From contig JAYWIR010000075.1 of the NCBI GenBank assembly GCA_036172245.1, positions 186,001 through 250,000 on the forward strand: 64,000 bases of DNA, given 5' to 3'. Shown here piece after piece: positions 5,120 through 51,900 of the stretch. Numbering within the stretch: the stretch's first letter is position 1; every line of letters starts with the position of its first letter. A model generated the notes under the pieces. The model saw only the letters and a program-made list of their open reading frames with translations, did no database searches and was not told the DNA's origin. This DNA is from Raillietiella orientalis (lineage: Eukaryota). A program made the translations under genes and the position numbers.

Positions 5120-11181
<6,062 letters not shown>

Positions 11182-13352: not shown

Positions 13353-16300
13353 ATGTGTGCGTTGCTTAAGATACACGTTTGTGTGTTCGTTGCTCTATTC
13401 AGCAGCTGTGCTACGCAAAATCAGGACCTAGGCCATATCGGTACTCTACAGTTTTACGAGACTTTCTTTGCAGCAAACAGATCGAATGAGAGGTTAAACG
13501 GAAGAGCCAACCGGAACTTCAGTGGAAATGCTTTGTCTTCTAATGCACACAGAAGATTGCAGCATCGCTTTCTGTTGAGAAACCAAACAGCTGCCAGGAG
13601 GCTTCGGAATCCAAATAAACAGGAGGATGCCATCCGACTTGTGGGAGGACTCGATCAATCTGAAGGTATTTTCTGTATGCTGGAATGTTCTCGAGAGATC
13701 ACCGATCACTCGTGCATTTCCTGAGAGTCAATACCGAATTCGAACGGCGAATCAGTTGCGCGGCCGGAACGACAAGAGGTCGGAGAATGCCGTCTGCAGT
13801 CAAGAGAGTCCGAGAGACCACCTTTTGGATGAGTAGAAATTCCGAAATGCGGCGTGTGGAAACCGAGATCTGGAAGTGCGACCATCGAGGTCTGCGAAGA
13901 GATCTCGTGGGCCCGGTTCGAGCAGAAACGTCAATGGGATTCCTGCGAGCATATAGCACAGAACATTCACAGGCTAGGCCGAAACCGACAAAGTCCCCCC
14001 CCCCCTCCACGGTAGACAGTTTTCGGCTTGGGGCAAAAGCGAATGGTTCATCGGGTCGATGTAATGTATCGTTCCCCATGAGCTCCAACAAGTCTTTTTT
14101 GGTTTTCCTCCTGGAGAAACCAGAGGGACCGGGAGGGACAGAATTCTCGTTTCTGGCTGTTCTGAAATGTGTGCACCTCTTCAGCAGAGATGCGTCCGTT
14201 TTTCTCACCGGAAAGAGCCTGGAACAACTCTTTTCCTGGATGCTTCCAGAGTCTCGCTTGACCCGCAGACTTTTTTTGTTTCCTTCGATGCCCTTCTTTC
14301 CTCGTCGGTTTCTCCCGGAAACGGTGCCGTCGGTGTCGACTCGTATTGTCACGCGTTTTCCGGAAGTAAGGGAGATGGAAGAAGCTCATTCTTTCCGATT
14401 TTTAGAGAGATAGGCGAGGCGGGGGAAAGGGGCGTGGCTTCGAAAATCGGCCATGAGCTCTCAGCCAGCTGGAGCAGTGGGCAGCCAACGAGTCCAGGAA
14501 CGACCCACTGACAATCACTTCTGCATCTCGCATCGGAGTTTTTCCCTTTCGTTCCCAATTGCTGCATCATCTGCTTTGTCTCGTTCTTGAAGCGGCACGC
14601 CCGCGCATAATCGTTGTTCCAGGGAGGACTTCTGGTGAGACGTTGGGAAGGGAAGGGGTAAGGTGGACAGGAAAGAGGTGCCGATCGGCGTTGGTCTCCA
14701 GTCAGGGGATGCTGGGTAGGAGTTGGATGCGGATGCACGAAGGAGGAATGAGCCTGTCTGAGTGACTCTGCCAGATGCCGAGAAGCAAGCGAGCCTTGTG
14801 ATAAACTGATTCACCTTGAGATCAGTGCTTGCCTAGTGACCCTACCCGTGTCATTGGAGCCGGTAGCGACTGCCGACGGAGGAATCGAGGTCCGCCGATG
14901 GAAGCGGATTCACCGAGGTCAGGAGAGTAAAGACGGGAACAGCTGCAACGATCAGCAACAAAATCAAAATGGCTCGAAGGCGCATTTCTCCAGGAAACGG
15001 GAAGATTGATGAACGAGGAATTGGAAAGGGAAAGAGGAGGAAGGGTCGGTGCTCTACAAGGGAGAGAAGCAGAGGAGTGCCTGCGCGGCACGCGACGTCC
15101 ACTTCATGCTAGAGGTCTACAGAGGCGAGAGACCGAGTCTTGTCTGTCCGATGCTAAGGGGAAAAGGAGGGATGGCTGGGTGGAGAGGCTGAAGAAGAGG
15201 CAGACTCACCACTTTCCTTCTGTCGGAGGAGTCCGGGGTTTTCCGTGACTTGTAGGAAGGAGGAAAGAGAGGAAGGGGATGCCCGTGCCTGCGTTGCGGC
15301 AGCAGCGTATCACAGGAAACGGAAGATGCGCAGACGGTGAAAGTTGGGGGTGCGTTTCCTTTGAGGAAAGGTTCTCCTCCCTTTCTGCTCCTCCGGTGAC
15401 TGCAGGATGGATCCAACCTCTCATTGGAGCTCACGGAATAGGAAGATGGGCACGACGAGATCGTGCACCACGAGTTTTTGCTGTGCGGCGGGCGGGCGAC
15501 CGAGCTAGGACCATCGGGCGGGGATTCCTCCCCAAGCATCTTCGGCACCCTCGTTTCCCCGGAAGCTGGTGCTTAAGGCTCCGAAAAATGACCATCCTAG
15601 AGTGGGGGATCCCTAGAGAGAGAGCAGGAAGAGAGGACGTCTCCAGGCCTCTTGGGTCCACGAGTACCCTCCCCTGTCGCTTTCGAGTCCGAACCCGCTC
15701 TGAGACCTGCGGCCGATCAGGCAGCCATGCTGGTAGTCAAGGGTACACCGCTGGAGACTGTCGCGGAGGCAGAAAGCTCCTTCCACCGGAAGAGGAGGAG
15801 GGTGATTCACGAATTTCTTTTCTGATAGGGAGTGGCCGTCTTTGGGGCAGTCCCTCTGCAATATTTGCATATTGTGGTTGCAGGTCGAAGATGAGAGAAC
15901 GACGTGTCCAGGGTGCGTCGCCTCTCTTCCCCCGTTTGTGCGGTGCTGCGTCCATTCGGTGTGGGGGGTTCCAGTCCACCTCTTCTCTTTCCTCTATCCT
16001 CGCATACTCCCACCCCGTCACCCTTCCTGATGATTACGAAAATTCATGGTTGGATGCGAATTCTTCCCTATATGTGCTTGGGTGGAGGAGGCAGGAAGAA
16101 TGGCGCGGGAGTGCCTTCTGGAGGGTGCTTCTGAAACTGTCTCCTGCCCCACCCTTGAGCTCAGAGTGAAACAGGAACCCGAAGATAGAAATTGGTGAGA
16201 TGAGCAGCAGCGGCGAGGGATGTCTCCGCGCGCCAGCATGAATCCAACGGACCAACGCGAGCGGGAAGAGGGATGGAAGGAGAAAAGAGGACGGGGGAAG

Positions 16301-19300
16301 GACGAGTGAGTTAAGACCAAAAGAAGTGGAGGGAATAGGAAAGACAGGAAACGAAATGACGAAAGGATTTATTGGGAGGGCATTTAGCGCGCGGAAGGGG
16401 GAGGTTGGGAAGAAGGATGGGGACTACTCCAGGAAAGGGGCCCGCAGCGGAGGCCACGTGGTGGCAGCCTCCGCACGCGGTACAGAGCGTCAAGGGTTCG
16501 AATCTCGCTCGGGAAAGCATAGGCGCCAGAAGAATGGGCGTGTCGTGGGTTCGAGTTCCTCCCGCAAGATAACACTGGTTGGTCTGTCTTCGGGCGCGGC
16601 ACTGGTGAAAGCTGAAAAACCGGATGCCCCCGATGAGTGGCTGGGATTGGAAGTTGATCTTCCGTGGCCCTTCCAGGAATCAAGGAGTCCCGTTGTTTTT
16701 GAGGTCCCCCCCCCCTCAGTGGTGCAGATGGAGTCGTCCCCTTCTGAGGAAGGACCTCTTCCATTTCGTACCATGGAGCTCCAATAAGCGGGCTGCTCCC
16801 TTCGGGGAGCGTCCTTCACAGAAAATTCGGAAGCGTCCTTTCGGGGTTCCCTTCAGAGGAGAAGGAAACCAGGAGAGGTTCCCTTGCGGGGGATCCCTCC
16901 GAAGAGAATAAGGAAGCGGATTCCTTCGGGGATCCCTTTGGTGACAACGAGGGTGGAGGGTCCCCTCCGGGGTGCCCTCCCAGGCATGGAGAGAACGGAC
17001 TCCTTCCTCCGGAGTCCTTCCTGGATTCATGGAGTGGTCCCTTCCCGGGCTACCCCCTTTCTTGAAGAGTCACCCGCACCCGCACTCTCGGGTGACGAGG
17101 ACAGCGTTGAAGAGCTGCGTGAGCCGCCAGGCGCGCGACGGTCCTTGAGGTACTGAGCGAACCAAAAAAAAGAAAAAAAAAAAAGCTCGAAAGAAAGGGA
17201 ATAGCACTGCTCAAGGGAGTCTCTTCCTGGATTCGACAGGAGCACTTGCGCGTGGCAGCCATCATGCTTACTCGGTGTCTTCCTTGTAGGGAACGTGGAG
17301 GTGCTGCATCTAGGCAAGTGGGGGATGGTCTGCGACGACGAGTGGGACTTTCGGGAAGGAGACGTCGTCTGCCGCCAGCTGGGCTTTTCAAAAGCGGAGG
17401 GGATCACAGTCAGCTCGCACTTCGGGCGAGGGGCAGGTAACACGGGAGCTTCAGGAGCTTTATCCAGGCTCCAATCCTTCCATGGACCCAATGCGCTCCT
17501 CTTCTTACAGAGAAAGTCTGGATGGACGATGTCTACTGCCTCGGGGACGAGGAAGCTCTGCGTGCCTGTCGTTTTGCCGGCTGGGGACTACACGACTGCT
17601 CGCGCGACGAGGCCGCGGGAGTAAGATGCAGTCGCAGTCTCCCTGGGAAGCTCCCGAAAGAAGAGATCCTTCCCCCGCAGGTCCTGCGCGCTCGGATACA
17701 GGTACAGCTGGCTTTTCACCACGGGAGGAAGGGGCTACGAACGCGGCTGCGGAAGCTGCCTCTGCGAGAAGCGTGCGCGAGAACAGGAGACCCTCCTTTT
17801 TCTTTCCTCATTTCCATTCCCATGGACCGCTGGGGAGGACGCGAAGAGACAAAGAGTGGAGGAGGAACCATTAGCCTAACGTGGCGCCGTGGCACCTCAG
17901 TCCGGGGCGTGCAGGTGCACCTCGGACAGACAACCTTCAGTTCATTCCCTCCAATGTTTCCTTCCTCGTCCCTCCAAAGGGACGAGTTTTCTCCGCAAAG
18001 CACGGAGGAAGTGTCTTCTCCACAGTGATCTCACCCTCTAAGGGGGAGTCCTGCCGTTCGAGGGCGAGGAATGCCTACCGAGAGACACTCACGTTTCAGG
18101 TGGGGAGGGGAAGAGAAAACCAGGGACAGTCGACCCTCTTCCCGCAGGTCATTCCTTCCCGCCTTTCCTGGAAATTTATGGAGTCCGCGCAGCGACTTCA
18201 CCTATTATTCCTTTACGGGAGTCGGGGCGAGCTCTCTGGAGGAAGGACGGGAAGGAGGGAGGTTAAGGAGGGAGTTGCAGTCGGAGATGAAGATTCCTTC
18301 CCCCCTCTTCCTCACTTCGCAGTGACCTTGACCTTTCCCGAAGAGTTTTTTTCCTCCTGCTGGAATCTAAAGACCACGTCCTCTAGGTCAGGTCCGTCGA
18401 AGGGGCAAGCTCCGGTGAACCGAAGCCGGCTCCTTTGACGGGCTCTTCGCGAAAGAGGAACCGCCCTCATCCCATGTCCAGAAACAGAGAGGGAAATAGC
18501 CGCGGTGACTGAATCCCGCGCTGGGATGGGCTGTTTCTTTTCGTAAGTCGGGATGAGGTGATGCCGAGATGCAGCATGGAAGGAGCGCTCAGGGAGAGGG
18601 GGTACTCGGAAAGCGCTCACTCCGGGAAGGACCGGGACCCATCCACGATCTCACGTCTGTCTCTCCTAATGTCATCTCGGAGAATGCTGAGGGCTCGATG
18701 GGTCCCGGATCGGCCAGAGCACCTCATCTGTAAGGACACGAAGGGGAGGAAGGAAAGTGTCGTCCATCCTCGTGGTTTCTCGGTGGGAGAGGCAAGGAAA
18801 AAATAAGGGAAGTGGGCCCCCGAAGAATCATGTTGGTGGCGCTACCACTTCTCGTCGCGTAGTTCCCTACTCGAAAGGCGATCCGGAGAAGAAAGAAAGG
18901 GCCAGATCGGGAAACCTTCCGGCAGGAACAGCCATGAGTCTTCGGAGACCACGGCAGTTCTCTGTGCGCTCCCATGAAGAGGCTCTGTAGGGATGCTCCG
19001 CACGATCCATCCGGTCTGTCCTGGAGTGTTCGCATCCTTGGGAGTGAGAGGAGGGAAGATCAGCGGAAGATGACTGGGGAGACCTCCCTCACTCGCGGCA
19101 GAGAAGACAACAGAAGCCTGTGTGAGAGCTGGTCCGAGGAACCGAAGCTTCGTGGGGCGCGCTCCTCAGGGCTGGGGGCGAGGGAAGAAGGAATCTTCAG
19201 GAATGGGTGCGGGAAGGATCAGCTGGAAGCAGGAGCTGCGATAGAGAAGGGATGTGCGCGTTCTTCACTCGTTCCTTCCTTTCGATGTGGTATGAGAGCG

Positions 19301-20921
19301 GGAAGGAGGAGGAAGATTAGGAGCAGGGAGGGAGAGGAGGAGATGGGAGAAGATTTCAAGAAGACCCGGATGCTCTCCAGAAGATAGCCCCTTTTTTCCC
19401 TACGGGATCATCTTACCTTCTCCCTCCCTTGCCTACTTCTCGGAAGAAAGCTGACATACAGAATCAGCATCCGTGATGCCCTATCTCTGAGCCCCCTGCA
19501 TTCAGGAGAGACGCTTCCGAGAGCCGGAGTTTGCTCCCGGCTCCCTCGAAAAGGATTCGGATTCCCGGGAGGCCGAAGTGATAAGGGATACGGGAGGACT
19601 CCTGCTGGTGTTCCGTGACTGTGGTCCTCGCGGGGGCTACTCCCATCCATCTTGCGTCCCTCTGAGGAAAGGCGTTGCGCCCCTCACCTGTCCTTCTTGT
19701 CCCAACCACCATCCCCACCGCTTTTCTCTTCCTTTTCTTTTTTCCACGTGCTGCTTCGCGATGCCAGGACCTGGCGAGTGACTTCGATGTCCGCCTCCGG
19801 GGAGGAAGGATCCCACTGGAAGGGAGGGTCGAGGTGCTGCTAGGAGAGGCCGGTGAGTTCCTGCCTGTACCGCTCCCTGAGGTGAAGGCTGTTTCTCGGC
19901 TTGTTCCCAGGATGGGGAGTCATCTGTGGGGACGGTTGGGATGTGTTCGCCGCCCAGGCAGTGTGCAAGCACCTGAAACTGGGGTATGCGCTGGCGGCTT
20001 TCCAGGCCGATGTGTTCGGAGGAGGGACTCTGCCCATGCTACTCAGCAACGTCTCGTGCTCCGAAGAGGAGCCATTTGGCGAGTGCTATTCGGAACTCTT
20101 CGGGAAGACGGGCTGTCCAGGGGAGGAAGGGAACATCGCCGGCGTGGCCTGTGCGGAAGGTAAGGGGCGTCCTCCTCCCTTCCCTTTTCCCTCCTCATGC
20201 TTCCTGGACCGGGCGCAGATCTACCGGACCTCATGATTGACCACCACGAGCTTACGAGAACTCTGCACCTGGAGGACAGGCAGCTCTTTTTCCTGCAGTG
20301 CGCCATGGAGGAGAACTGCCTTGCGCCTTCCGCCTTCGAGTTGCGGAAGAAGAACTCTTTCGGCTGGCACCTGGAGGTGCGGAGGCTGCTCCGCTTCACA
20401 GCAAAGATCGTGAACGTTGGCACCGCGGACTTCCTGCCTTTCCTCGCGAAGGAGAGCTGGCAGTGGCACCAGTGCCACCTGTCCGTATTCCCCCCCTTTT
20501 TTCTGAAGACCGAGGACCAGCGTCTCTCTCCTCTTTCACCTCCAGCCATTACCACAGCATGGAGTTGTTTGCCCGCTTCGACGTGCTCAACCTTGAAGGA
20601 AAGAGGGTGGCTGAGGGACACAAGGCTTCCTTCTGCCTGGAAGACAACCAGTGCCTGAACGGGACTCGACCCAAGTACGCGTGCGCCAACTACGGGGACC
20701 AGGGCATCTCACCAGGTTGCGTGGACACTTATGCCTGGAACATCGACTGCCAGTGGATCGACCTCACGGACGTTCCTGCGGGCACGTACGTCATCAAGAT
20801 CTCCATCAATCCAGAGTTCAAGATAGCCGAGATGGACTACAGAAACAACGCGGCCATGTGCACCCTTATTTATACACAGACACACGCCTACGTATCCAAC
20901 TGTAGCCTCACGAGACCGTGA
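13353..20921 (+). CDS. Lysyl oxidase-like protein with signal peptide, two SRCR domains and catalytic LOX domain; 7 exons, 540 aa
   Basis: Exons 13353-13665, 17290-17436, 17511-17701, 19768-19852, 19911-20159, 20219-20480, 20546-20921 join in frame (1623 nt). SRCR1 IRLVGG..EGNVEVLHLGKWGMVCDDEW; SRCR2 VRLRGG..EGRVEV..WGVICGDGW; copper motif WQWHQCHLHYHSM across the last intron; LTQ cofactor Lys (GHKASFCLED) and Tyr (DTYAWNIDCQWID). AATAAA at 21033. Confidence 0.93.
16443..17200 (+). mobile_element. SINE-like dispersed repeat with tRNA-like head (in LOXL intron 1)
   Basis: A-box-like GGCCACGTGGT near 16452, B-box GGTTCGAATC 16495-16504, second B-box-like GGTTCGAGTTCC 16548-16559, hairpin-rich body, A-rich stretch 17164-17184. 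16469-17171 is the near-identical reverse complement of 38284-38986. Confidence 0.65.
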
Positions 20922-23900
20922 GACCTAATGCCGCAGAGCATACGCCCAGACACTGGTGCACGCTCTCGGCCAGGTGGCTGTCAGTGGAAACGCGTGCGCC
21001 AGTTTCAGAGATGAGCTGATCTTCTTACAAGGAATAAATAAATGGAAGGAGAGAGAGAGAAAAAAAAGAGAGAACATGAGAAAAAGATGGATGAGAGCTA
21101 GATCCTCTCTGTCCCTCAAGGCAGAGACGCGAAAACCTGTTTTTGACCGTCTTGAATACACAACATCCAAATGGAAAGAGGCACGACAATCTTATGAGAG
21201 CTCTGCGATCCTTGTAAAGAGAAAAAGCTGAACGAAAGAGTTACCCGCGAGAGGTTTTGTTGATCAACTTTGAAGGCAGCAAGTCCATGCGTGCTTAGAC
21301 ACCACGCTGGCAGCCTCGGTTGTCAGGAAGAAAACGCTGGGAGCTCAGGATAGCTTAAGTACTCTCTTCAGCAGCCATCTAAACGCATCTTTGGAGCGAA
21401 GGAGAGGGTTAAGGGAACTTCTAGGCGCTCAGCTGACTCTTCTCTGTCTACCACGGGACTGGACCTTGCCGCACGATCGTGCACTCATGAAGTTGTCGAG
21501 ATGATGACTCCTTAACCTCTTCCCGATGAGGTCAGAGTCTGCGTCTGCCTATGCTTCCATCTCGTCAGTCTTTCTTGCTGCTTCGCGGAAGCGGCTCCAG
21601 AAGGGGAAAAACAATACTCAGCTACCTTTCGTCAGTGAGGACAGGGAGGGGAGGGAAGAGTCACAGCTAGATGGAAGAAGGTATAGGTCACTCTACGCAT
21701 CCTGAAGAGTCCTGGAGCATCTCTCCGACTCCACCAAAGGTGGTCTTTCAGGCTAGGAAGGTCTCTGCCAGGGGCTTCAGGCATGTCTGCTAGTCCCAAC
21801 GTGTGGTGGAGGCGCTGCAGACTCGAATCTCTAGGAGCTCATTGCACGTTGGCGCCTATAGTTCTCAGCAAAAGCTGTCGAGGAGCTCTTGTATGAAGCC
21901 GAATCAAAGACCTTCCTGAATGGATGGACGATGACGATTAAGAAGGGTGAAATCAGCTAACCATCCAGATCGTGGAGATGCAGACCCAACCCCTACTCTA
22001 CTGTATTGACAGGAACTAAGCCAGCCCATCACTTTCACCTTTTGAAGAGATCCTTTTGTGGTAGGGAGGACCAGGTCCTTCGTACAAGGAGCTTTTGACA
22101 TCATTCATCTCCACAGTCCCGAGAGAGATCCGGAGGAAAAATCATGTCATTCTAGGAAACGAAAGGAGCCTCTTCAGAGTTGGGAGTAGATCTAGCAGGA
22201 CCTATGAGGAGCAAGTTCACTGGGCACACCTTTATTTTGGCCCAAGGTCTCCTTCCGAGGATAATTCCCTGCGTTCGGCATCCTTAACTAGATCTCTAGG
22301 TGACTAGTCCGCAAGAGAGCATATACAGAACACAGAAAGACTGGTGAGAACTATCCCTACAATGAATAGGAAAACCTTCCCACAGCTCTTGTTTGAGAGA
22401 TCTGAAGGGAAAGGCAAAGCTTGGACACCAGGAGTCCTGCATTGGTGCCTGGGATATCACTCGGCAATACCTCAGCGCATAGAGAATGCCCATGGCAACA
22501 GTGCAACTTCAACTATGAGAGAGGCTGGAGAGCTGGAGAGGCTTTCAGGTTAAACTAGGAAATCTGTACCTCTTATCGACACCTTATCACTGCAGGAAGG
22601 TGTGGAGGAAGATCATCAGGTCTCTTTAACAATAAAAACTTGTGTTGTTCAGTGTTTTAAAACCAGATGCATTTGACATACCTAGAAATCTCCTCTTTCT
22701 GGTCTTCAAGCTTCTCCCAACCTTCCGAAGTCTTCAAAGAGTCTAACTGGCCTCTGACATAAGTCTATGGGAAACCAGTCTGTTCCTCTGTTCCGTGGTT
22801 GCTCCTCTTTGACGGACAGTCTATGTCCGGTGGAGACTGCTTCTTTCGAGAATGAATCATCGTCCCACACTGCCTTTGTTATTTTGCTGCTATCATTGTA
22901 GTTGAAAGGACGCGAGGCGCTTTTGAAGATCAGGTCGAGCTATCCGCAAGCTTCAGAATGTTTAACAGTCAAACATCAAGTGAATTAAATCTCAAATGAA
23001 ACCAATGAAACTAATATGCAATATCAATTAAGATCATTGATCTTTGAAGCCCATAATCCCATCGTGTAGCCGAGCGGGGAGTCAGCTGTAAAATTAGGAT
23101 GGGGAGGAGGGAAGTGGGGGATAACAGGCACAGAAGAATTTCTTGAGTTCTTTAACTCGCGTGCGTTGCCGTTAGTAAAAAAATTTCCACGAATAATCTT
23201 GATTAAGCTCTTTCCGAAACGACAAGAGAACTCGCATGTTTCGTGGTTTGCTTGATTCGTGGTTCTTCTGAGTTGAAAAAACGACTATTCAAAGGGAAGA
23301 TTTCTTTTCATTGATGGCTTTACATAAAAGGCTGGATATCAGTTCAAAGAGCTTTTGGAGCTGTGTCAAATTTTAATGAATGAGAAAACATAAAGCAAAC
23401 ATGCCTAGGCGGCAATATAATATGCCTATTTGTTAATGACATACTTGTTTCTAGTGTTCCTCTTTATCTGGATTGGTTGTTTCATCCTTAAAGAGGAGTT
23501 CAGAAGCAAAGTATTCTTTAAGCTTCCTTTTATCATGTTACTATTATTTCTTCCATTTCATCTGTGAATTAGGATTGGAAATTTCTGGGAAGATGATTTC
23601 TTGATGCTGCACGGAAAAACTTTAAAAGCTCTTTCCCACTAATTTTGTTTTCAACTACAATAATGGACAGCGTTTTATCTCCGGTTCTTTTCTATACCTA
23701 GTGCTGGAAGATATTTAAGTATTCCGTTGAAGAGCACGAACCTCCATATCAACAGGAAAGTTTTTCAGAAAACTTGGCCTTTTATATTGGTGATTAAAAG
23801 CATGAAAAATCTCTCAATCACTACGTTCATATCCCCTAGTCAAATTCTTTCAAAATTCTTAAAATCTTAAAATTTGGTTCAAGGTTGAGGTTTATCACTC

Positions 23901-25184: not shown

Positions 25185-26110
25185 ATGTTGGTTGGTATAG
25201 GAAGAATTTTTCGTGGATTTTCCACATCATTGGTAAAGCATAGTAATCATTTCAATATCTGCAAATCACAAACTGTAAACGTTCAAACAACATTTAAGAA
25301 CATGAATAATGGATCACTATTTACACACCGAATGGTACCATTGTATTGTTCGAGTTCTGCTGTTCACTCAAAAGGTAATGTGAATTACTATTTGATAAAA
25401 TTTTATTGTCTATACAGCGGATAAGGAATTAGTCGAATTTTTAACGGGTGAAATCAAGGCAGAGAAACAAAATCGAAGTGAAACAAAACAAATCAACACA
25501 ATTGAGGGATTTGAGATTCATACTAAGGAGTCAGAGGTCACTCTAACTCGCGTGTTTAATGATGAACAGTAAGTGATAACAGGAGAAATTTCAGCATAAT
25601 TTTGTGTAGCATAAGCATCTTTTTGAATGTGAATGATGCTGTTGATACAGATCCTGAATCTGAAATTCAAGCAGAAGAGGATAAACCTGAAATTGCTGAA
25701 ATGAAATGCAGACCCAATTTTGAGGTTAATGTACGCAGAGGCAATCAAGTGTTGTTGTTTCAATGCTCTTTTACCACGGATGTTGTCAGTGCTGAGTCAG
25801 GTCATGGTGAATACAATGATATTTTCATGATTGATGAAGTATGTCTGCATAATGGAGAACAAGAAGATTACTCTTACACAGTGTCAGGAAATATTCTAGA
25901 TGGAGTAAGTGGAGAAACAAGTATGCAAAACAGGCATGCTTAATGATATTGATCTTATTTTAGTATTTATATGATTTACTCATGAATTATTTGGAGACAC
26001 GAGGGGTATCAAATCAATTTGCTGAGGTGCTAATTAACTTCTGCACATCATATGAACATCAGCTTTACATAAATTTCTTAGAACAAGTCCGTAAATTTGT
26101 CAGCAATTAG
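25185..26110 (+). CDS. C1QBP: C1QBP/p32 (MAM33 family) mitochondrial matrix acidic protein; 4 exons, 260 aa
   Basis: Exons 25185-25374, 25418-25568, 25610-25904, 25964-26110 (783 nt). Basic presequence-like N-terminus, then VHSKADKELVEFLTGEIKAEK, RPNFEVNVRRG, and LDGYLYDLLMNYLETRGVSNQFAEVLINFCTSYEHQLYINFLEQVRKFV, matching the C1QBP helices. Confidence 0.93.
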
Positions 26111-26160
26111 CAATTTTATGAGTAAAAAAAAATTGAGAATTCCATGTTTCCTATTTATTT

Positions 26161-26814
26161 TTATCCAATCATGGAACGTTTTCGTCCTCGCAAACGTACT
26201 TCATCTAATTTGGCCTTGATTTCTGTTGCTTGAGAATTATTGTGACTATATTCATTAAGTACATCAGTCCAAAATTGCTGCAGGGCAGGATGATCACTCA
26301 ACAGAGATTTTTCCAGAACATAGAGGTCCACACCTTTGTCTTCTGAACTTGTCCCGGAAAAGCTCAATCCAAAATCAATGAGTACCACAGATGCACATGA
26401 TGGTTCAAGTAACATGTTTGATGGTGTCAAATCTCCATGAATGATGTGGTGCATGTGTATCAGGCGAAGTGCCTGACCAATTTTAGTTGCTAAAGCTTGC
26501 AAGCCTTGATAATTGAAAGATGATTCCAAATATTCTTTTACAGTGATATGGTTCTCGAAATCTTGCATTATGATTCTTTTATGAGTAAGGTCAATCATAT
26601 ACAATGCTGGAACACATATGCCTAATTTATGACACCTTGCCAATGCACGTGCCTCAGCTTTTAAGCGTTCTTTATTAAGCTGATCATCCAAGATTTGGTT
26701 TCTGTAACTTTTTTTGAATCTTTCTTTGATTATTACTGCTTTAGCCAGGAATTTCCCTCTATACAACTTTGCTTCAGCTCCTTGTTTAATAAGTTTGTAT
26801 TCTATATCACTCAT
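26161..26814 (-). CDS. TP53RK: TP53RK/PRPK/Bud32 atypical kinase, KEOPS complex subunit; intronless, 217 aa
   Basis: LIKQGAEA, IIKERFKKSYR, HGDLTPSNMLL, LIDFGLS, EDKGVDLYVLEK and C-terminal EVRLRGRKRSMIG; minus-strand AATAAA at 26154-26159. Confidence 0.97.
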   Translation of the reverse strand: MSDIEYKLIKQGAEAKLYRGKFLAKAVIIKERFKKSYRNQILDDQLNKERLKAEARALARCHKLGICVPALYMIDLTHKRIIMQDFENHITVKEYLESSFNYQGLQALATKIGQALRLIHMHHIIHGDLTPSNMLLEPSCASVVLIDFGLSFSGTSSEDKGVDLYVLEKSLLSDHPALQQFWTDVLNEYSHNNSQATEIKAKLDEVRLRGRKRSMIG

Positions 26815-27073
26815 TTTTCTGGCAGCAAAACATTTTTCTCCAACTCAGCAACATTAATGTTTTTTTGTTTTAAGGCTTTCTACCAAAAATAATCAGTACA
26901 ATGAAACTTAAATGCTACCCTGACATTACCTTGACACATTCTTGATAAACCTTAAAGAGTGAGCTGCAGTCATCACTGTCCACTCCTTTCAGAAATTTTT
27001 CTGTAAACCAGACATTAAAGCATGATTCGTATTTTTGTTTAAGTTCAGTACATTCTTCAGAAATACTTTGCAT
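26811..27073 (-). CDS. TRIAP1: TRIAP1/Mdm35 twin-CX9C mitochondrial intermembrane-space protein; 2 exons, 70 aa
   Basis: Exon 27073-26930, GT-AG intron 26929-26880, exon 26879-26811 give [70 protein letters not shown], with two CX9C motifs and the family signature CFN.WF.EKFLKG. Not in the ORF track. Confidence 0.93.
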
Positions 27074-30000
27074 CTAGTAAAAAATGTTTGAAATTATTAT
27101 ATATGACTTTGAAACAGAAACCACATGTAGATACACCCTAGCTTACATACACTGGTTTGCAGAATAATTTCTACCGCATGCTACATATGACAAAACTATC
27201 ATAAAATGAAACTGTTTGATTAAGTCTTCCCTGTCTTCAGATGCTGCAATTCTCTCTTATTTAGCTACTGGAGTTCTCAGTGTTGGTAAAATCCGAAATC
27301 TGCTCATTATTTATTTCTTGACATTATTGCAAGGAATCGACTTATTTACGGATAAAATAACACCTTGCAAAGGCAAAAACACTAACAACTTAAAGAACAA
27401 ACACCGTAAAACCTGGATACTTCACGCACAGGAATTAGCGCCTGTAATTTCAAAGCAATCGTGGACCAATTTAAATGAAATTGACTATCAATTCAAGTAC
27501 CCAGTTTGTTACTTTTTTAATACAAGATTATGCGCATTTAATTATAAACTGTGCTATTTGATGTAATTCACTGGTGCTGGGGTTTCTGCAACCATAAAAT
27601 AATGCTGAAAACACTTCCATTATTTATTACTTTCTTTTATGAACCACAATTTTATTTGGAATTCTTTAAATAGTCTGTCAATTTCAAGGGCTGTTTAACA
27701 CTGCTTACATTCAAAATACAACCAACTCATATGAACATGAAATTAACACTTTTAAATAGTTAGCAACAAGAGTTCCGTTTCACACGTGCCTTTCGCGAAA
27801 CCATCAGGATTCCTACTTCTCAATGCTCTCCTATCCCGACGGCTTTTGGATAGAGTTATTTATTATTTAGTGAAAAGAATAGCAGCAAGTAAATGAAAGC
27901 AAGCAGAATTGGTTAGCAGTAAAAACAAAAGATGAACAATGAAAATAACTGGTAATAAAGTAATTTCATACCATGATGCAAATTCAAAGGGATTTAGATC
28001 AAATACTGGCACAATATTTCTGGTGGAAGTTGGAAAATTTTACGAAAAAGAGGACGATTCTTAAAATGCTTTTTTTCTCTCTGAGAAAAACTGCAGAATA
28101 AATTCTCGAGTATGTACATCTGAATGAGTTTCTATTTGGGGTATTTTCCCCCTCCAGCAATCTTCTATAGGTCCCTTATTTTTCAAAAATAAAAGTAAAA
28201 AAATACTGCCCAAATTAGTTTTAGAGAGATTGTTTTTGAAAGAATCTGTCTAAGTTAAGTAATCCCTTTAAAGTTTCCATCAAAAAATCCATTCTAATAA
28301 GACTAAAAGCAAAATTTCTTGGTACACTGCAGAAGATGAAATTATTCTAAATAAAAAGGATAGAAAGGTTCTATATAAAAAAGAAGCAGGTGTTCGAATC
28401 GATTTAAGAATTTTACATTGAACTCATCAGTATGATTTCCCTTATTCAGGTGAAATTCAGATTTCTGAAACCCAAGTATTCTTTAGAATTGGAATGTGGT
28501 CAAAGAATTTTATTCGTTATTTCTAGTTAAAGAGATTTACAGTGCTACTGCAAATCATGCAAGACATTAAAAATGCATACTTCTCACAAAACTGTATCGG
28601 AAAGACAGCGATTCGATTTGTAGCAAGCATCATATTTTCATATTTTTCCTTTTATTTTGATATAGTTGTATTGAAGATTAAATTATTCAATTGTCTTCAC
28701 GATATCATATAATATTGGGTTTCAAAATTACTATGATCTTAATATATCTTTAAATCCAGACAAATATGAAGGCCTTTATTGTTTTTAGTTGGGTATGTTT
28801 GTAGAGAGCACCTAAATACTGGAAGGTCATCTATCATAGTTGACATACGAGAACATGTGAAAATGAGATAAAAGGGAATCAACAAATGAACTCATAATCA
28901 CAAAACAAAGGTACAATGAAATAATATATCACATATTTAATGAACTATGTCTTCAAATATACGAATAATGAGTCATGCATGTGATAGAAGTTGACGTTAC
29001 AATACGACAGCAATGGATTAGGGTCAGAGACGCATACTGAACATGATTTGTAAGAAAGGTGCTGCTTTGAATACATCTGAGAATAATTCTTGGCTTTCAT
29101 CTACCTTTTCTTGATTAATAAACCAATTGAAAAAGGGACATTTCTCTCGAGTGAATGCATATTGTATGAGAGCCTAATATCTGAGGCCATGAGAATCACT
29201 TGCAAATGTTTCGAAAATATAATAGCAAACACAATGTAACAAAAGCAAATGAAGAATTTCCTATACTAGTGTCTGCTCTAGAGGCCTTTGCTATCACTGA
29301 TTATGAAGAGCAATGGTAACTTCAGTGAAATTCTATTTTAGAAACTTTGATGAATAGTAGCAATATATTAAAAGTTAATTAATGTTTGAAAGATCAAAAA
29401 AATAAAAGGATTTTAATCAGGATGGGTCAAATAATGAAATTTCGTTTCTCATCATTATAAGTAAGAATGTGTTTACAGGTAATAAGTAAGTGAGTCTTAT
29501 TAATTACTATCGTATTTTAAGTTCTGAGTGACATATGGATCTACATAAAGAAAACATATGATACTTGTTATTTAACAATCCTCATTTTTAGAGAGTAAAA
29601 AAGGAAATGTGAAATTATCTTTATAGCAAAATCGATGAGTACATGCTTTAGAAAGCTCTTTTGTTTGAGAACGACAGGGAATTCATTTTGAGCTTTAAAA
29701 TGTCCAGGAGTAAAAAAAAAAAAAAACAATCAACCCAAAGGTTTTTTATTTATAAGTAATTCAAAATTAAATAAAATTCCATGTACCTTTAGAATCAGCT
29801 AATGAGCAAGTAATTCTTTAGTAATAAATTATGATGCAAGACTTTTTGATGACTTTTAGTAGCTATAATAAATTATCTCAATTTACAGATAGGCGGTTGT
29901 GCTGTGCTGCCTGAAGCTACTGCTTATTCTAAGGCTCCAGCCTGCTTATTCTAAGGCGCGGAAGCTGTAGTTCCTGTTTTTTCCAAAATTTAAGCCTTCC

Positions 30001-31784: not shown

Positions 31785-32203
31785 ATGAATCCGAGAAGGC
31801 TTCGGAGGAAGGAGTCCATTCCCCTTACGCTTGGGAGGGAACCTCTTCCTTATTCTCTCCGAAGGAGTCCCCCGAGGGGGGTCACTCCTCGTTTCCTCTC
31901 CGGAGAGAATTCGAAAAGGATCCATTCCTTGCTTCCTGATCCACTGAAGAGAACCCTGAAGGGATGCTTCCAGATTTTCTCTGAAAGAAGTGAGCAGTGG
32001 GCTTCTTCACACTCTGGAGAGGTATCAATTCACCAACCTCATGGTATGAGATGGAAGGGATCTTCCCAGAGGGGGAAAGATGACCACATTTTCACAATCG
32101 GAGGGAGACTCTGAAAAGAAACGACTCCTTGATTCTTGGAAGGACTCTTGGAAGATCAACTTCTAATCCCGGCCAGTCATCGGGGGCGCCCACCGTTACA
32201 GCA
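31785..32203 (-). mobile_element. Partial copy (body) of the same SINE-like repeat
   Basis: Collinear with 38425-38845: ATGAATCC..GGAGGAAGGAGTCC, TTCCTTATTCTCT, GACTCCTTGATTC.TGGAAGG, GGAAGATCAACTTC.AATCCC, TCATCGGGGGC. Confidence 0.6.
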
Positions 32204-32204
32204 G

Positions 32205-35200
32205 AACACCCAACATCCGGAAGCTGGCAGAATTCAAAGCGGGAGCCGAAAGGCAAGAGTGGCAATCCAGGTCGGCCAGCTTGCTGGACGACGAGGGCCG
32301 AAAGCACTAGGTTCCCGCTCACGTAAGAGGCATAGTCCGCAAGTTCTCCTCCCTGTACGCGTGATTACCTCCCGAGCGAGATTTCGCAAGATTCCTGCTT
32401 CCCGAAGGTGCTCTAGCGATCGGGGAGGAGCTCAGAAGTCTCGACAAGCCTTTCACAATGGGCGAAATAATCACCGCTGTCGGCAAGGTCAAGAGACGCG
32501 CAAGGCTTCAGACGAGGAAGGCCTGTCTGAGGAGTTTTTCCAGTGCTTCGCGGCAGAGCCGACTCCCCTGGTACAACCACTGGCCCTGCTGATACGCGAA
32601 ACAGGCGACGTTCCCGCATCGTTTCGCTCAGCAAGGGTACGGCTTCTTCCCAAAGGAGGAGACCTAAGGAGCATAAACAAATGGAAGCCGATTACCGTGG
32701 TAAACGCGGACGCCAAGTTGCTAGCGAAACTGTGGGCCGGGCGGCTATGGCGGGTGGCGGAAAGCTTCCTTAGCCCGGAGCAGTCGTATGCTGTTACCGG
32801 GCAAAGCATGAATGCCAACCTGCTCTGCAGGTTGCGCGAACCAGGTGCTCTGGGCTAGCACCTGGTTCGCGCTCCAACAGGGAAGGGAGATGATGGACAA
32901 CCAGGATTCCAGAGCGTCCGTCGGCCAGGGGCGGGAAGGTCAGGCGGGAGTGGGAGCCCTTGCAGTCGTAGTCGACCTGCGCAAGGTACCTTGCTCACGG
33001 GCAGTATCGCCGCCGCTGAACGAAAGGGAGGCGCGATTATTGCACAAGGTATTCGATTTTCACCCGGAATTCCCCGGGTCGTTTATTAAAAAAAATGAAC
33101 TTTATAGGAAAAATGTCAGTGGCTGCAGCAATGCTGCAGCCAAGCACGAAGAACCACGGAGCCTCCCGGGTCACCGGTTCGCAGACCGGTGCGGTCCACC
33201 ATGGCAGCAGGGGAAGGGGGAAAAGACAACTAAACAAACAGAAAAAAAGAGTGGGAGGGTACGGGAAGGGATCACTGTTGCTGCTGGGGCCGCATCATCC
33301 TTCTCAGGATGCCGGCAAGCTCTTGTTGCATTTCAGGATCCAGTTGGGACCATCGCGACGCCCTCCTCAGGAATTGGGAGGCGCACTGGATGGCCTCCTT
33401 ATCGCGTGGTCCTCCCGTAGCCGTGCTCCATGCAGCGACGATCCCGCGAAGGCAGCACAAGGCCGCTATCGAGGCCGCTGGCCGGAGGGCATTGGCAACG
33501 AAGAGGGCTTTTAAAGCATCCCTGGGGTTGCCGCAGGGGATTCCGATGGCCACGGCAAAGCGGAACCAAGGGGCCGAAGGGCAACACAATCCACAAGCAG
33601 GTGGGGGAGGGACTCCCGTTCCCCACACCTAACACAATTGGGATCCGCCGCTCCCCAGGTCCAATGATGTCAGCGGGCATTGCAGGGGAGTCCCCAATGC
33701 TGCAACAGTAGAGCCGACTCCTGCCATTTTAAGGGGAGGGTGGAAGTGTTCATGAGCACCGGGGGCCACTTCAGATGTTCAATCGGAACATCAAGCAGCG
33801 CTCCCCAGCGCAGAAGTCCATGGGGAGGCGTACTCGGGGTGGCAGCGTCTGTCAACTGGCCCGTCTTCCACTCTCCCTGCTTCTTCTCCTTCCCGGAGAT
33901 TTTTATGCTAACCTCCCACTTCGCCGCAACTTCGCTGTCCTGATGTTCCACTAGGGAGGCCAGCGCAGCAGCGAGGGGGGTTCTTCCTGACCACGCTCGC
34001 TTCTTCGGATCCTCCAGGATCTCTCGGAGCGTGCAACTTCTGTAGCACCCAAACAGGAACCTTCGTTCCTGTTGGGCGCGTTGCATGCCGCACTGTGCCC
34101 ACGTGCGAACGGTTTCCTGCATCCAGGCACTAGCGTTCGCGGGGCGACAGGTGATCCATCCACAAGGTATTCGACTGCGCCGACCAGGGGCTCCTTCTGG
34201 AACTGCTGGAACGCTTGGACTTCCAGGCCGCATTGTCGGCCTATCTGTGCTCCAGCTGGTGCCGCGCACTCATCAGTATCTCTTTAAGGGGTGCATGGAA
34301 TGCCGGTGCTACGCGGCATACGGCAGGGCAATAGCCTGAGTACCCTGTTCTTTAGCATCTATTTCGAATTGGTGCTGAGAGCATACAGGGAGACTCTGGC
34401 TCTCCACTCGAGCGTATGTCCAGGCACACCTGCCATCTCGGCATACGCGGACGATTTTCAGCTGTTGCTCTCCATCTCTACCCCGGCATGCGCACTCGAT
34501 GGTTTCTTCGAGCTGCTCGGTCATGGGACGGGACCGGTGGTGAACAAAGCGAAGTCGTCCTTTGTTCCCGTTGGTGCGTTGTGGGCAGGGCGGCCGGACT
34601 GGATCCGCCTGGGGATCCCCACAGGATGGTACTTAAAGTACCTGGACGTTCCGTTGGGGGACCTCTGCTCCTCAGAAGCTTGGTCCAGCCGTCTTCAGAA
34701 AGCACTGCAAGCGCTCGGCCCGTTCCAAAGAGGCAGGTTTTACCTGCGGAAACGGGCCGCTGTGTGGAACATGTTTGTGGCCCCTCTCCTCTGCCCCTTG
34801 CTTTTTTTTGCCACTGCCATGCAGCATTAGAAAACGGACAAAGAACCTCCTCCGGATCATCCTCTGGGACAAAAGGAGGCCCCGAGTCCACCTAAAGGAC
34901 TTGTGCGTTCCGCGTCTGGACGGCAGTCTCAGCCTCCTGACGCTGGAGCGCGTGGAAATACAGCTGCGGTGGCATACCCTAGCCATCGCGGCGAAGATGT
35001 GGAGCACCCCTTGGTGCGTTCCGGTCCGACTCCTCGCCAGACGTGTGTCCGGGACTGAAGGACTCGCGTCTTTTCTTCTGTGCCCCGGACGGAAAATAAG
35101 ATGTGGCCTTCTCCTGGGACGCATGGCCACCCTGGTAAAGGAGAACGGGTGGATGGCTTGCAGCCCCGCCAACTCCAGCGCATGGCTGGAAGAAACAATT

Positions 35201-36240
35201 GGCACGTGGGCGAAGTTAAACCAGCCTAGTGGAGAATCCTGGAACCGCCTGCGTTCCGGCATCTACACCCGCTGCATACTGCGGAATATGATCGAGTGTC
35301 CGTGGGCGGAGACGACCCCACTGACCACGGCGCTGCCCTTCCTGAGGAGGGCGCTCGGCAGCAGCCGAACGCCGAGGTTGCAAGTCTCCTGCCGGATAGC
35401 GTGCAGGAAGCAGATGATGAGGGGCTGGACCACGAGGAAACTGGCTGATGCCGCGACCCCAAGCGTTCTCCCGTGAGGAATCCAGAGATGGGGCGAGCTG
35501 CTGGGCATCCCGCTGGATGACCTAAAGTGGCCCCCGTTATTCAGAAACTCATCCACCCTCCCCCTCAAGTGGCAGGAAACGGCGCTGATGTTGTTGCACT
35601 GGGGTCTTCCCTGCAACGCACGCCGCCACCACTGGACGTTGGGGAACGTGGGACAGAACTGTGCAGTGTGCGGGGAGAAGGAATCCCTCCCCCACCTGTT
35701 AGGGGACTGCGCTGCCCTCCGGCCCTTGTGGGAACGTTTTGGTACGACCCTCCGTATGCTGGTCGGCAATACCCCCAGAGAATTTGTGAGACTCCTCTTC
35801 ATGCGAGACGCCCTGCCATCAGCCTCAACCCTGACAGCGCTCTGCTGCCTCCGAAGGATTGTGGCTGCGTGGAGCGCAGCCAACAGAGGAAGCAGCGATA
35901 GGGACGCCATCGTACATGCGGGTCGCTACCTGCGAATCGCGATCGGCTGGTCCCATCTGGTAGATATGACGAGGGACCTCGAGGGCATCCTGGAAAGGAT
36001 GGTCTCTTCCTCCAGCGGACTGTGATCCCTTCCCGGTCCCCCAAATAGTTTCTTTTTTTTTGGTTGTTTCATTTATTTTTCTTTCTGCTTTACCGCCTAT
36101 CCCCCTCCGCTGCCGAGGAGAGTCAAGCCGGTCTGCGAACCGGCTTCCTGGCAGGTCTCATGAACTGTTGGCCGTAGCGGGACCTAGTACCGCAGATGTA
36201 CAGTGTTTATTAACAAACGCCTTGGCGTGACCGGGTGAGA
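32205..36240 (+). mobile_element. 5'-truncated, degenerate L1/Tx1-like non-LTR retrotransposon (ORF2 RT plus C-terminal Cys/His region and 3' UTR), interrupted by a nested insertion
   Basis: Ordered RT motifs with frameshifts/stops: LLDDEG...KFSSLY, PFTMGEIITAV, GLSEEFF, LLPKGGDLRSINKWKPITVVNADAKLLAK..RL, SPEQ, VDL.KVFD (split at 32978/34161), RGIRQGNSLSTLFF, AYADD, VNKAKS, KYLDVPL, LCVPRLDGSL, CAVCGEKESLPHLLGDC; stop at 36025. Confidence 0.88.
33057..34160 (-). mobile_element. 1.1-kb 5'-truncated copy of a related L1/Tx1-like element, inserted antisense
   Basis: Translates to WITCRPANASAWMQETVRTWAQ...LPLKWQESALLLQHWGLPCNAR...ALCCLRGIVAAWS, homologous to about 35150-36025; AATAAA (33082-33087 on minus) and a short A tail; flanked by CACAAGGTATTCGA at 33043-33056 and 34161-34174. 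Confidence 0.9.
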
Positions 36241-48900: not shown

Positions 48901-51900
48901 CGCTCCATTTTTTCTTCTTTGAAGAAAACCCGGAAAGGATTCACTCCTCGAATCTCTTCTCCGGAGGGATCCCCCTCAAGAGATCCGCTCCTGTTTACTC
49001 CTCTGAAGAGAACCCAGAAGGGACGCCTCCGAAATTCAGAAGGGTACTGCTCTCCCAGAAGGAAGCGGCTCGCTTCCCTGAACTCTGGAGAGGTGGTGGC
49101 GACACACCTACTCCATCAGCACGATTTGGAGGGTCCCCCAGGAATGGGGGTCCACTCCTTCATAACCGGAGGGGAGCTCCCACTCCATGATTCCTGGAAG
49201 GACCCGGAGGTCGACTCCTATTTGTCCTGGCCCTCAAAGGGAACATCCAGTTTCAACAGCTACCATTGTCGCATCCGGATGAATGGAGGCCAATCAGTGT
49301 CATCTTGCAGGAGGAACTCGAACCCACGACGCTCTGCTCCATTCAGTTCGGAGTATTCGACCCCGCGACGCTTGGTGCCACGCGCGAAGACCACCGTAAC
49401 CACACGGCCTCCGACGTGGGCTGGCAGTTGCTGAGTGGGTTTGGTGTGAAGTGTGTATGCTTCTCTCCCCGTAGAAAGTGCATAGCAGAGGTGCAGAAGA
49501 GTACAATGACTCCTAAGTTCGGAAGTGGAAAGGCGATGAAGAAGGCTGGTAAAGCTCAGAAAACATCGCGAAAGGAGACAAGAAGAAAAAGCGGAAGAGG
49601 AAGGAAAGTTTCGCGATCTACATCTACAAAGTGTTGAAGCAGTTACACCCGGACACGGGCATTTCGAACAAGGTCTTGTCGATCATGAACAGCTTCGTGA
49701 ACAATTTCGAGCTCATCGCTGCAGAGGCGTCCCGCCTGTCGCACTACAAGTGCACCATCATCACCAGCCGAGAGGTGCAGACGGCGGTTGCGCCTGTTGC
49801 TGCCTGGGGAACTGGCCAAGCACGCCGTCTCGGAAGACACGAAAGCAGTGACCAAGTGCACGAGCTCGAAATGAGCATCGTGCAGTTGCTGTCGCCTGCG
49901 GCCCACCTTGTCCTACCAAAACCAACAGTTTTTGGAATAGTGTATGGTGGTACTCATCTAGTCAGCTTGCAGCGGTTTGCCCCCCCTCACTCCCATGGTA
50001 AATGAACCCGTGAAATAACTACCAATTCCCCAGCCTCCTTGGTGACCAAATTCAGAGGGGACCCCTATCTGGAAACAGGGTCTTCTGGCCTTTGCATCAC
50101 TTTGGCCTAGGTTGGAAAAAGACTGGATGCTCTCTGTAGAGTTGGGATGAGACGTGCCTTCAGACGACCGAGGATCGTGATTCGCGCTCGTGGGCATCCA
50201 TCTGCCGTCCTTCCCTCTCTTTTCCTGAGCTCAATGCGAGCAGTTGCAATGGAAATACGCGCTCTTGTATCTGTACCCTCGAGAGTGCAGTTTTCACAGA
50301 ATGCGTTCCCGATGGGATGCTCTTGGGATGCAGTTTGTTCCAAGCTTCGAAGCACACCATGGTTTCCGGCTTCCTGCGTTCCTGAAATTTCCTCAGTTGC
50401 TCTGCCTAAGGAGTGAGCACCTCATCTGGACAGAGTCATTTCTTGTAACACGGTGTCTCTCTTCCTCCCTCCCCCCTTTCCCCCTTCCATTATGCGAGGG
50501 AGAGGAATCGAATACGGAGCGGAGTCTCGACCTTCCAGCTGTGGTATCTTGGAGGTTCCTTTCTTCCCCAAAACCACACCTGAAAGTCGAGCTCCCGCCT
50601 TTCGAATCCCTCCCCATTTCTCGTCTCGTGAACTTCCTTTTCTCGCAAAAAGGTGATCCCAGAACTGACGCTCAGATACGATGGAAAAAAGCTTGGCGCT
50701 TTCTTCCATCGTATCTGGGTGCAAGAAGCTTCCGGGATCGGCTGTCTTTTGATAAGAGGGTACGCGTACGCTTGACATCCGTCATATTCAAAGAATCATT
50801 ACTGTTGTCGCAACAAACCTTGTCGGAGGTGCCTTTCCCGAGATGTTGCCCAGGTGACTCAGCTCGCGAAGTGGCTCTGTCGTCGCGGTGGAACTACGGG
50901 AGTGCCGAAGATGCCCTTCGTCAGCAGAAGATGAACACAGAAGTGAACTTCCAAGTGAGGGTGAGGGTGGTGGAAGCTCGGCAGCTTGTTGGCCTCGGGA
51001 TCCATCCTGTGGTTCGAGTGAAATTGCTCACCGAAACCCACCAGACGAGAATTCACAGCAGCACCAATAACCCCTGGTTCGATGAGATGTTCTTCTTTCA
51101 AGGAAGGAAGAAAGTTGAGGACCTCCTGGAGAACTGCATGACTTTCGAGGTGAGGTGACCTACGAGCGGGTGGTGGACTCACCTGCCTCTCAGGTGTGCA
51201 ACTCTCGCCTACTTCGAAGCGATCCGGTCATCGGCTCCTTTAACGTAAGTGTTGAGGGAGAGAGCAAGCTTCCCTTAGGCGGCGTCCCTTAGCTCTCCCT
51301 GTCACTATGCTACGGAACTCCCATCTTGAATAAGTGGCTCATCCTATCCCGCACGGAGAGCTCCCTTTCCATGATAGCAGGTCAGAGCTACGTTGTGGAA
51401 GCTCCGATCAACCTTTCTCATCAGGCTATCTGAAAGTATCGCTAGCGGTTCTGGGTCCTGGAGACAAGTGTCCCTCCATGGAAGTTTCTACGTCTGCTGG
51501 CGATGACGTTGAAACCAACTTGCTGTGGCCTACTGGAGTTTCATTGCAGCCCGCATACTTCTCCTTAAGCCTGTACAAAGTTTGTGACTTGCCCAGGAGT
51601 AAGGAAAGGTCGTTCTTCCAGTCAGACCCTCCGGTTCTGTTGCATTTCAGTGGACCCTGGTGTCGCAGCCAAACTGAAAAGACTATTTGGGTACGGGGAG
51701 TCCAAGAAAGAACAAGTCGATCCGTATTTAGTAGCGTCCTTTGCTGGACAGTCAGTGACATCCAAGGTCGTCTACATGGACGAGAATCCGACATTCAACC
51801 AAAACCTCAACCTCCACTTTCTTTTTCCTTCCGTATGCAATCAGATCCGACTGGTGCTCATGGATTGGTAGGAGACCGCATGGAAGGGTCGCGTTTACCT

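Follow-up and report, generated by a model that had tools for sequence, protein, structure and literature searches.

Overlapping TRIAP1 and TP53RK genes in Raillietiella orientalis, a candidate dicistronic transcription unit

TRIAP1 (Mdm35) and TP53RK (Bud32, PRPK) lie one behind the other on the minus strand of a 64,000-nucleotide (nt) stretch of Raillietiella orientalis DNA (contig JAYWIR010000075.1, positions 186,001 to 250,000; this whole stretch is called the window below, and all coordinates refer to it), and they are joined by the tetranucleotide ATGA, in which the stop codon of the first gene overlaps the start codon of the second. The ATG of TP53RK (26814-26812) and the TGA of TRIAP1 (26813-26811) have TG in common, and nothing separates the two open reading frames (ORFs). 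Direct reading of the minus strand and the coding sequence rebuilt by coordinates agree on this arrangement, which is exactly the one described by the original prediction made from the letters of the window. Judged by this anatomy, TRIAP1 and TP53RK most likely constitute a single compact transcription unit. We propose that TP53RK may be made through ribosomal restart on a dicistronic TRIAP1-TP53RK mRNA, an explanation that we favor while rating its probability just short of even. The elements of the pair are the following.

26930..27073, minus strand: exon 1 of TRIAP1/Mdm35, starting with ATG 27073-27071, 48 codons, containing both CX9C motifs (direct sequence reading)
26880..26929, minus strand: TRIAP1 intron of 50 nt, phase 0, GTAATG...TTTTTGGTAG, with the donor GT from 26929 and the AG at 26881-26880
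26811..26879, minus strand: coding part of TRIAP1 exon 2, 22 codons and TGA 26813-26811, ending ...CCA GAA AAA TGA
26811..26814, minus strand: the ATGA stop/start overlap of 4 nt, at the end of a run of five A's (A5, 26818-26814) (direct reading and coordinates)
26161..26814, minus strand: intronless coding sequence of TP53RK/Bud32/PRPK, ATG 26814-26812, 217 codons, TAA 26163-26161, no interruption
26154..26159, minus strand: AATAAA, 2 nt past the TP53RK stop, likely the shared terminal poly(A) signal (sequence scan)

TRIAP1 is encoded by two exons, which give a rebuilt coding sequence of 213 nt and a product of 70 amino acids. Exon 1 alone matches Pfam UPF0203 (PF05254) at 1.2e-18 (67.5 bits versus a cut-off of 27), and a twin CX9C motif, C8-x9-C18 and C36-x9-C46, is read directly in the translation. 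The product shares 72% identity with the TRIAP1 proteins of Danaus and Plutella (Lepidoptera), and five annotated insect TRIAP1 proteins align with the spliced TRIAP1 over its full length, including ...KNVLLPEK. The final ~11 residues of these five proteins are missing here, and that tail differs among the five. The intron is similar in length to the introns of the Ago3 gene of the same window (~47-67 nt, counted from sequences and coordinates). The family function, chaperoning of PRELI/Ups lipid-transfer proteins in the intermembrane space, is predicted for this TRIAP1; the Drosophila dTRIAP1/2 knock-out is reported to have normal mitochondria (PMC11649117, in the part available to us). Two other TRIAP1 representatives, P0177 (309 residues, UPF0203 and Med10) and P0245 (157 residues, UPF0203 and RRM), are probably merged models of adjoining genes in other organisms, which would mean that TRIAP1 often lies very near unrelated genes.

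TP53RK, the downstream ORF, matches the Pfam domains Pkinase, Kdo and RIO1. The best 120 relatives listed range from E 5e-59 to 6e-54, with 45-52% identity and 97-100% coverage, and every functionally named protein among them is a TP53RK, PRPK or Tcs5; identity is ~50% to frogs, cockroach and hemichordate alike. In an alignment of 17 sequences (this one and 16 homologs), the glycine-rich/KQGAEA loop, the catalytic K30, the HGD with the catalytic Asp, the DFG motif and the C-terminal basic RGRKR tail are all kept and belong to the invariant columns. The start Met stands 9 residues ahead of the KQGAEA loop, as compared to 6-22 residues in the 16 aligned homologs. Residue 131 (26422-26424, minus strand), within the catalytic loop HGDLTPSN, is Pro, while 16/16 of the other aligned sequences carry Thr. 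Comparison with the ESM Atlas gave a generic family assignment and nothing more specific. The family function predicted here is that of the KEOPS kinase/ATPase, acting with Kae1/OSGEP and Cgi121/TPRKB in the formation of N6-threonylcarbamoyladenosine (t6A); genes for Kae1/OSGEP and Cgi121/TPRKB are absent from the window. The Pfam and database matches and the alignments support both frames and both ends, in agreement with the gene identities first proposed, and on this sequence evidence the overlap is one of two genuine genes and not a chance pair of frames.

The pair shows the layout of a dicistronic locus, with two independent conserved ORFs on one strand and a negative stop-start distance. 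From its ATG to its stop TRIAP1 spans only 263 nt, the 50-nt intron included, thus any promoter of TP53RK would need to be placed within TRIAP1 or ahead of it, and as TP53RK is intronless, no exon junction follows the TRIAP1 stop. We propose that both minus-strand genes are served by one promoter or leader located upstream of 27073 and share a 3' end formed via the poly(A) signal at 26159-26154, the outcome being a spliced dicistronic mRNA of ~0.9 kb. On this mRNA, the 70-codon TRIAP1 ORF would be translated first, with termination at the UGA, and a fraction of the post-termination 40S subunits would regain initiator tRNA at the overlapping AUG and produce TP53RK as a low-abundance KEOPS kinase/ATPase. 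The TP53RK AUG stands at position 210 of the spliced mRNA, in the A-rich context AAAA-AUG-A (AAAAAUGA), which would be presented unstructured to the restarting subunits. In this lineage, the arrangement probably originated by intron loss or retroposition of TP53RK beside TRIAP1, clipping the variable TRIAP1 tail.

Two routes to TP53RK on one mRNA had been envisaged, leaky scanning past TRIAP1 and stop-restart at the overlap. The first is not supported. Between the two starts there are seven out-of-frame AUGs, opening mini-ORFs of 2-17 codons, as compared to 5.6 +/- 1.3 internal AUGs expected by synonymous codon resampling with local usage (5000 trials, with zero AUGs in 0/5000). There is thus no depletion of AUGs in the TRIAP1 ORF, and leaky scanning finds no support in spite of the weak context of the TRIAP1 AUG (T at -3). 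The last two of the upstream out-of-frame AUGs (26854 and 26833, minus strand) start mini-ORFs that both end at TGA 26809-26807, 5 nt inside TP53RK. Two copies of the 9-mer AGAAAAATG are present at 26839-26831 and 26820-26812 (minus strand), with a spacing of 19 nt, so that a decoy AUG has a context identical to that of the TP53RK AUG. Stop-restart is possible, but of the helper signals that were sought none was found. A programmed -1 frameshift into TP53RK at the A run was considered separately and rejected, since A GAA AAA is no canonical X XXY YYZ heptamer; ribosome sliding has been reported on A runs far longer than five A's.

Several points weigh against restart on a dicistronic mRNA. A termination upstream ribosomal binding site (TURBS) includes an upstream UGGGA motif complementary to helix 26 of the 18S ribosomal RNA. 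The 213 nt that encode TRIAP1 lack the corresponding TGGGA (TURBS motif 1), and five windows across the junction do not fold with unusual stability (z of -0.84 to +1.01 versus dinucleotide shuffles). Poyry et al. are said to have found, in 2004 and 2007, that restart after an ORF the size of 70 codons is generally inefficient without a helper element. TP53RK is an essential housekeeping gene, and a low-yield supply by restart might be insufficient for it. Finally, an acceptor-like site 4 nt ahead of the TP53RK AUG and two poly(A) hexamers within TP53RK would permit separate mRNAs. That TP53RK in this lineage comes solely from the dicistronic mRNA, by restart past a full 70-codon ORF and without a TURBS-like tether, is in our judgment rather unlikely. 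If true, the locus would show that termination-reinitiation past a long ORF can work efficiently in a natural cellular setting and serve an essential gene, with the dose of a KEOPS subunit coupled to the translation of a mitochondrial chaperone.

The sites that bear on separate mRNAs are the following.

26819..26832, minus strand: acceptor-like tgttttgctgccAG, ending 4 nt ahead of the TP53RK ATG; an exon from 26818 would put AAAA before the ATG
27074..27086, minus strand: acceptor-like cattttttactAG, immediately adjoining the TRIAP1 ATG (acceptor scoring)
27145..27150, minus strand: candidate donor GTATGT, which with the acceptor at 27074 would give a 77-nt intron, as deduced from the sequence only
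26785..26790, minus strand: ATTAAA inside TP53RK, beginning 21 nt past the TRIAP1 stop, a candidate early poly(A) signal, no more frequent than by chance
26671..26676, minus strand: AATAAA inside TP53RK, beginning 135 nt past the TRIAP1 stop, a candidate early poly(A) signal, no more frequent than by chance

Separate mature mRNAs made from a shared promoter are quite possible, though on balance not probable. TP53RK would then be translated by ordinary cap-dependent scanning of a monocistronic mRNA without an upstream AUG. In one variant a non-coding leader exon or a spliced leader (SL) would be joined to either the 27074 acceptor (TRIAP1) or the 26819 acceptor (TP53RK); in another, transcription would start inside TRIAP1. 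The TRIAP1 mRNAs would either end at a hexamer within TP53RK or keep TP53RK as an untranslated 3' part. It is the acceptor-like tgttttgctgccAG before the TP53RK ATG that lends real weight to the rival of a separately processed TP53RK mRNA. By a crude score, which counts pyrimidines at -14 to -3 and adds the YAG, this site (8/12 pyrimidines and YAG, followed by AAAA-ATG) ties the best of the six real acceptors in the window with which it was compared; the same score is reached by only 16/257 (6%) of the AGs in coding exons. The second acceptor-like motif, cattttttactAG at the TRIAP1 ATG, with GTATGT 77 nt further upstream, might point to a non-coding leader exon further upstream or to trans-splicing at this place, and a common leader exon alternatively joined to either ORF would fit these motifs, as would a spliced leader if this animal is a crustacean of the copepod or amphipod kind. 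SL trans-splicing is reported to be present in copepods and amphipods and absent in insects (PMC7986045, in the text accessible to us). The leader exon, the SL gene and the promoter of this scheme are hypothetical; Rfam gave no hits within the 64-kb window. Besides, trans-splicing at 26819 would sever TRIAP1 ahead of its stop, unlike the classical resolution of an operon. Splicing of TRIAP1 exon 1 to the 26819 acceptor was also tried, and it yields ...AAA AAT GAG TGA, a truncated TRIAP1 and no fusion.

At the 3' side, the AATAAA past the TP53RK stop, first taken for the one obvious signal of the locus, is present but is not the sole hexamer, given ATTAAA (26790-26785) and AATAAA (26676-26671) within TP53RK. 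These two occur at chance frequency, the expectation being ~1 hexamer of each kind per 654 nt at 34% G+C (a rough estimate, not computed), yet they suffice for the argument against a separate TRIAP1 3' end to fall. Thus, from the earlier statement that the junction leaves no room for a promoter or a poly(A) site, the zero spacer between the ORFs is retained, while the part on the poly(A) site is weakened. Fly data, too, speak for separate mRNAs: among 159 dicistronic loci in FlyBase, only 45 give nothing but dicistronic transcripts for both genes, and some of the monocistronic forms come from alternative splices that break one coding region (PMC4528330, in the sections available). The proposal of one mRNA for both proteins is therefore upheld in part, with the anatomy and the Drosophila precedent in its favor and the acceptor-like site at 26819 and the internal hexamers weakening it.

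An assembly error in the A5 run 26818-26814 is a very improbable source of the overlap. Long-read assemblies often miscount homopolymers, and one added A would turn CCA GAA AAA TGA into CCA GAA AAA ATG AGT..., so that six A's would produce an in-frame TRIAP1-TP53RK fusion of 286 residues, while four A's would produce an 8-nt overlap. Against such an error, no TRIAP1-kinase fusion was seen in the best 150 of 519 TRIAP1 representatives (the 15 long ones screened by Pfam, all 150 by BLAST against TP53RK), and PF05254 is found on 0 of the 120 listed TP53RK homologs. The TP53RK Met lies where the homologs begin, the fusion of a protein imported into the intermembrane space with a cytosolic/nuclear KEOPS subunit would be functionally implausible, and open frames and canonical short introns were seen at the four inspected Ago3 junction regions of the window. 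Hardly credible, too, is the reading of this TP53RK as a retrocopy behind TRIAP1, young, silent or redundant, with a working intron-bearing gene elsewhere: the intronless state (versus three introns in the 249-amino-acid Prpk of Apis cerana, as given in the part of PMC12735054 at hand) and Pro131 would suit a retrocopy, but 217 codons are open in DNA of 34% G+C, the remaining invariant motifs are whole (catalytic Asp, DFG and RGRKR tail among them), neither a target-site duplication around TP53RK nor a poly(A) remnant was found, and ~50% identity to the orthologs is unlike a recent copy of any database protein.

The TRIAP1-TP53RK locus is located in AT-rich, tightly packed DNA. A gene for a mitochondrial glycoprotein of the MAM33/C1QBP type (25185-26110, plus strand; four exons, introns of ~20-70 nt) is convergent with TP53RK, and its stop (26110) lies 50 nt from the TP53RK stop, thus the 3' untranslated regions of the two must overlap or be extremely short. 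An Ago3-type Piwi-clade Argonaute gene (8459-11178, plus strand; introns of ~47-67 nt) has PAZ and Piwi domains and, among named proteins, is closest to the Ago3 of Panulirus (lobster, 56%), Daphnia (50%) and Chrysoperla (lacewing, 48%). The identities of TRIAP1, Ago3 and TP53RK to database proteins place the animal no more narrowly than within Pancrustacea and reveal no annotated relative close to it. Within DNA of 30-34% G+C, blocks of 52-64% G+C extend over 14000-22000 and 32000-62000, and contain a lysyl-oxidase-like gene (SRCR at 17441-18028, Lysyl_oxidase at 20241-20921, 4.6e-60) and C2-domain exons (50229-51158, 54447-55268 and 56964-57935). Decayed remnants of a non-LTR (long terminal repeat) retrotransposon are found at 32133-36025 on the plus strand, where a reverse-transcriptase-like frame is recognizable by eye with no Pfam hit, alongside a weak zf-RVT match (35477-36025, E = 4e-4).

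Joint transcription had also been taken to link mitochondrial lipid transport to t6A formation. Co-transcription does not imply such a link: ~82% of the fly polycistronic loci do not pair similar genes, and few of these are functionally related (PMC4528330, in its available text). On the genes as read here, the dicistronic layout is no indication that TRIAP1 and TP53RK work together. If the mRNA is truly dicistronic, the locus would offer a compact natural substrate for the study of how animal ribosomes restart once a full-length ORF has been read, with no tether of the viral type, and two products that are both well known and easily assayed. There is also a consequence for annotation. Gene-finding programs limited to a single coding sequence per transcript will miss one of the two genes, TRIAP1 or TP53RK, in this lineage, and an essential t6A gene or the PRELI chaperone would then be wrongly scored as a "loss".

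A TRIAP1-TP53RK gene pairing was not found in print in the literature covered, subscription journals lying outside that coverage. The fly homologs of TRIAP1 are CG30108 and CG30109, according to the accessible part of PMC11649117, and neither these nor Prpk/CG10673/Tcs5 were found in the 11 supplement files of the fly list of dicistronic genes. The pairing looks lineage-specific, because it is off the fly list and because the Apis cerana Prpk is interrupted by introns. In metagenome contigs, a TRIAP1 match better than E = 2.6 stood beside 0/80 Bud32/TP53RK loci (80 kept of 597 confirmed); judging by identities and matched ranges most of these loci look archaeal or seem to be from unrelated eukaryotes, therefore they carry little weight for conservation.

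Among known systems, the spliced-leader operons of nematodes and tunicates resemble the locus in that two genes on one strand follow each other with no gap and that the second ATG is closely preceded by an acceptor-like site. They differ in that here the candidate acceptor at 26819 precedes the TRIAP1 stop by 6 nt, where trans-splicing would destroy the upstream mRNA, hence this is no classical SL operon. In copepods and amphipods, SL trans-splicing has been reported without operons, as far as the available part of PMC7986045 goes.

The overlap of stop and start codons is shared with the calicivirus TURBS, with the UAAUG of influenza B M1/BM2, with the AUGA of victoriviruses and with the UAAUG of SART1, a Bombyx retrotransposon in which stop/start-coupled translation of a bicistronic RNA has been described in an insect element (PMC10275272 and PMC3035654 for the set, PMC10275272 for SART1, each in the portions available). 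In these systems, as would be the case for TP53RK, the downstream protein comes from ribosomes that have just terminated (PMC10275272, PMC3035654, same portions); unlike TRIAP1-TP53RK, where neither was found, they need an upstream 18S-binding motif or a defined RNA structure. A cellular animal mRNA that codes for two proteins is known in Mocs2/CG42503 (MOCS2A/2B; PMC4528330, available sections). The two proteins encoded there are subunits of a single enzyme, in an arrangement that is conserved widely, while TRIAP1 and TP53RK are functionally unrelated and not on the fly list.

The closest likeness is found among the dicistronic genes of Drosophila, which are common, with 159 pairs in FlyBase, and in which the stop-start distance at polycistronic-only loci ranges from -34 to +319 nt (PMC4528330, available sections). 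File S1 of the same work lists 28 rows, that is, 14 overlapping pairs, two of which, CG33649/DNApol-gamma35 and moi/Tgs1, have an overlap of 4 nt and are both flagged "all di/polycistronic" (PMC4528330 File S1). CG33649/DNApol-gamma35 is like TRIAP1-TP53RK in joining two unrelated genes by a 4-nt overlap, and unlike it in the proteins encoded (PMC4528330 File S1, with the part of the article at hand). The moi-Tgs1 locus (CG31241) is likewise from an arthropod, and it combines the same 4-nt stop/start overlap (PMC4528330 File S1) with a small first ORF interrupted by one small intron and a second ORF encoding an essential RNA-modifying enzyme; its two products, a telomere-capping protein and a cap hypermethylase, are different ones and act independently, and its transcript has been documented experimentally (PMC7289441, in the part accessible to us), while the TRIAP1-TP53RK transcript is a predicted one. 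The arrangement of overlapping cistrons is thus already known from other pairs of the fruit fly, of which TRIAP1-TP53RK is probably a further example.

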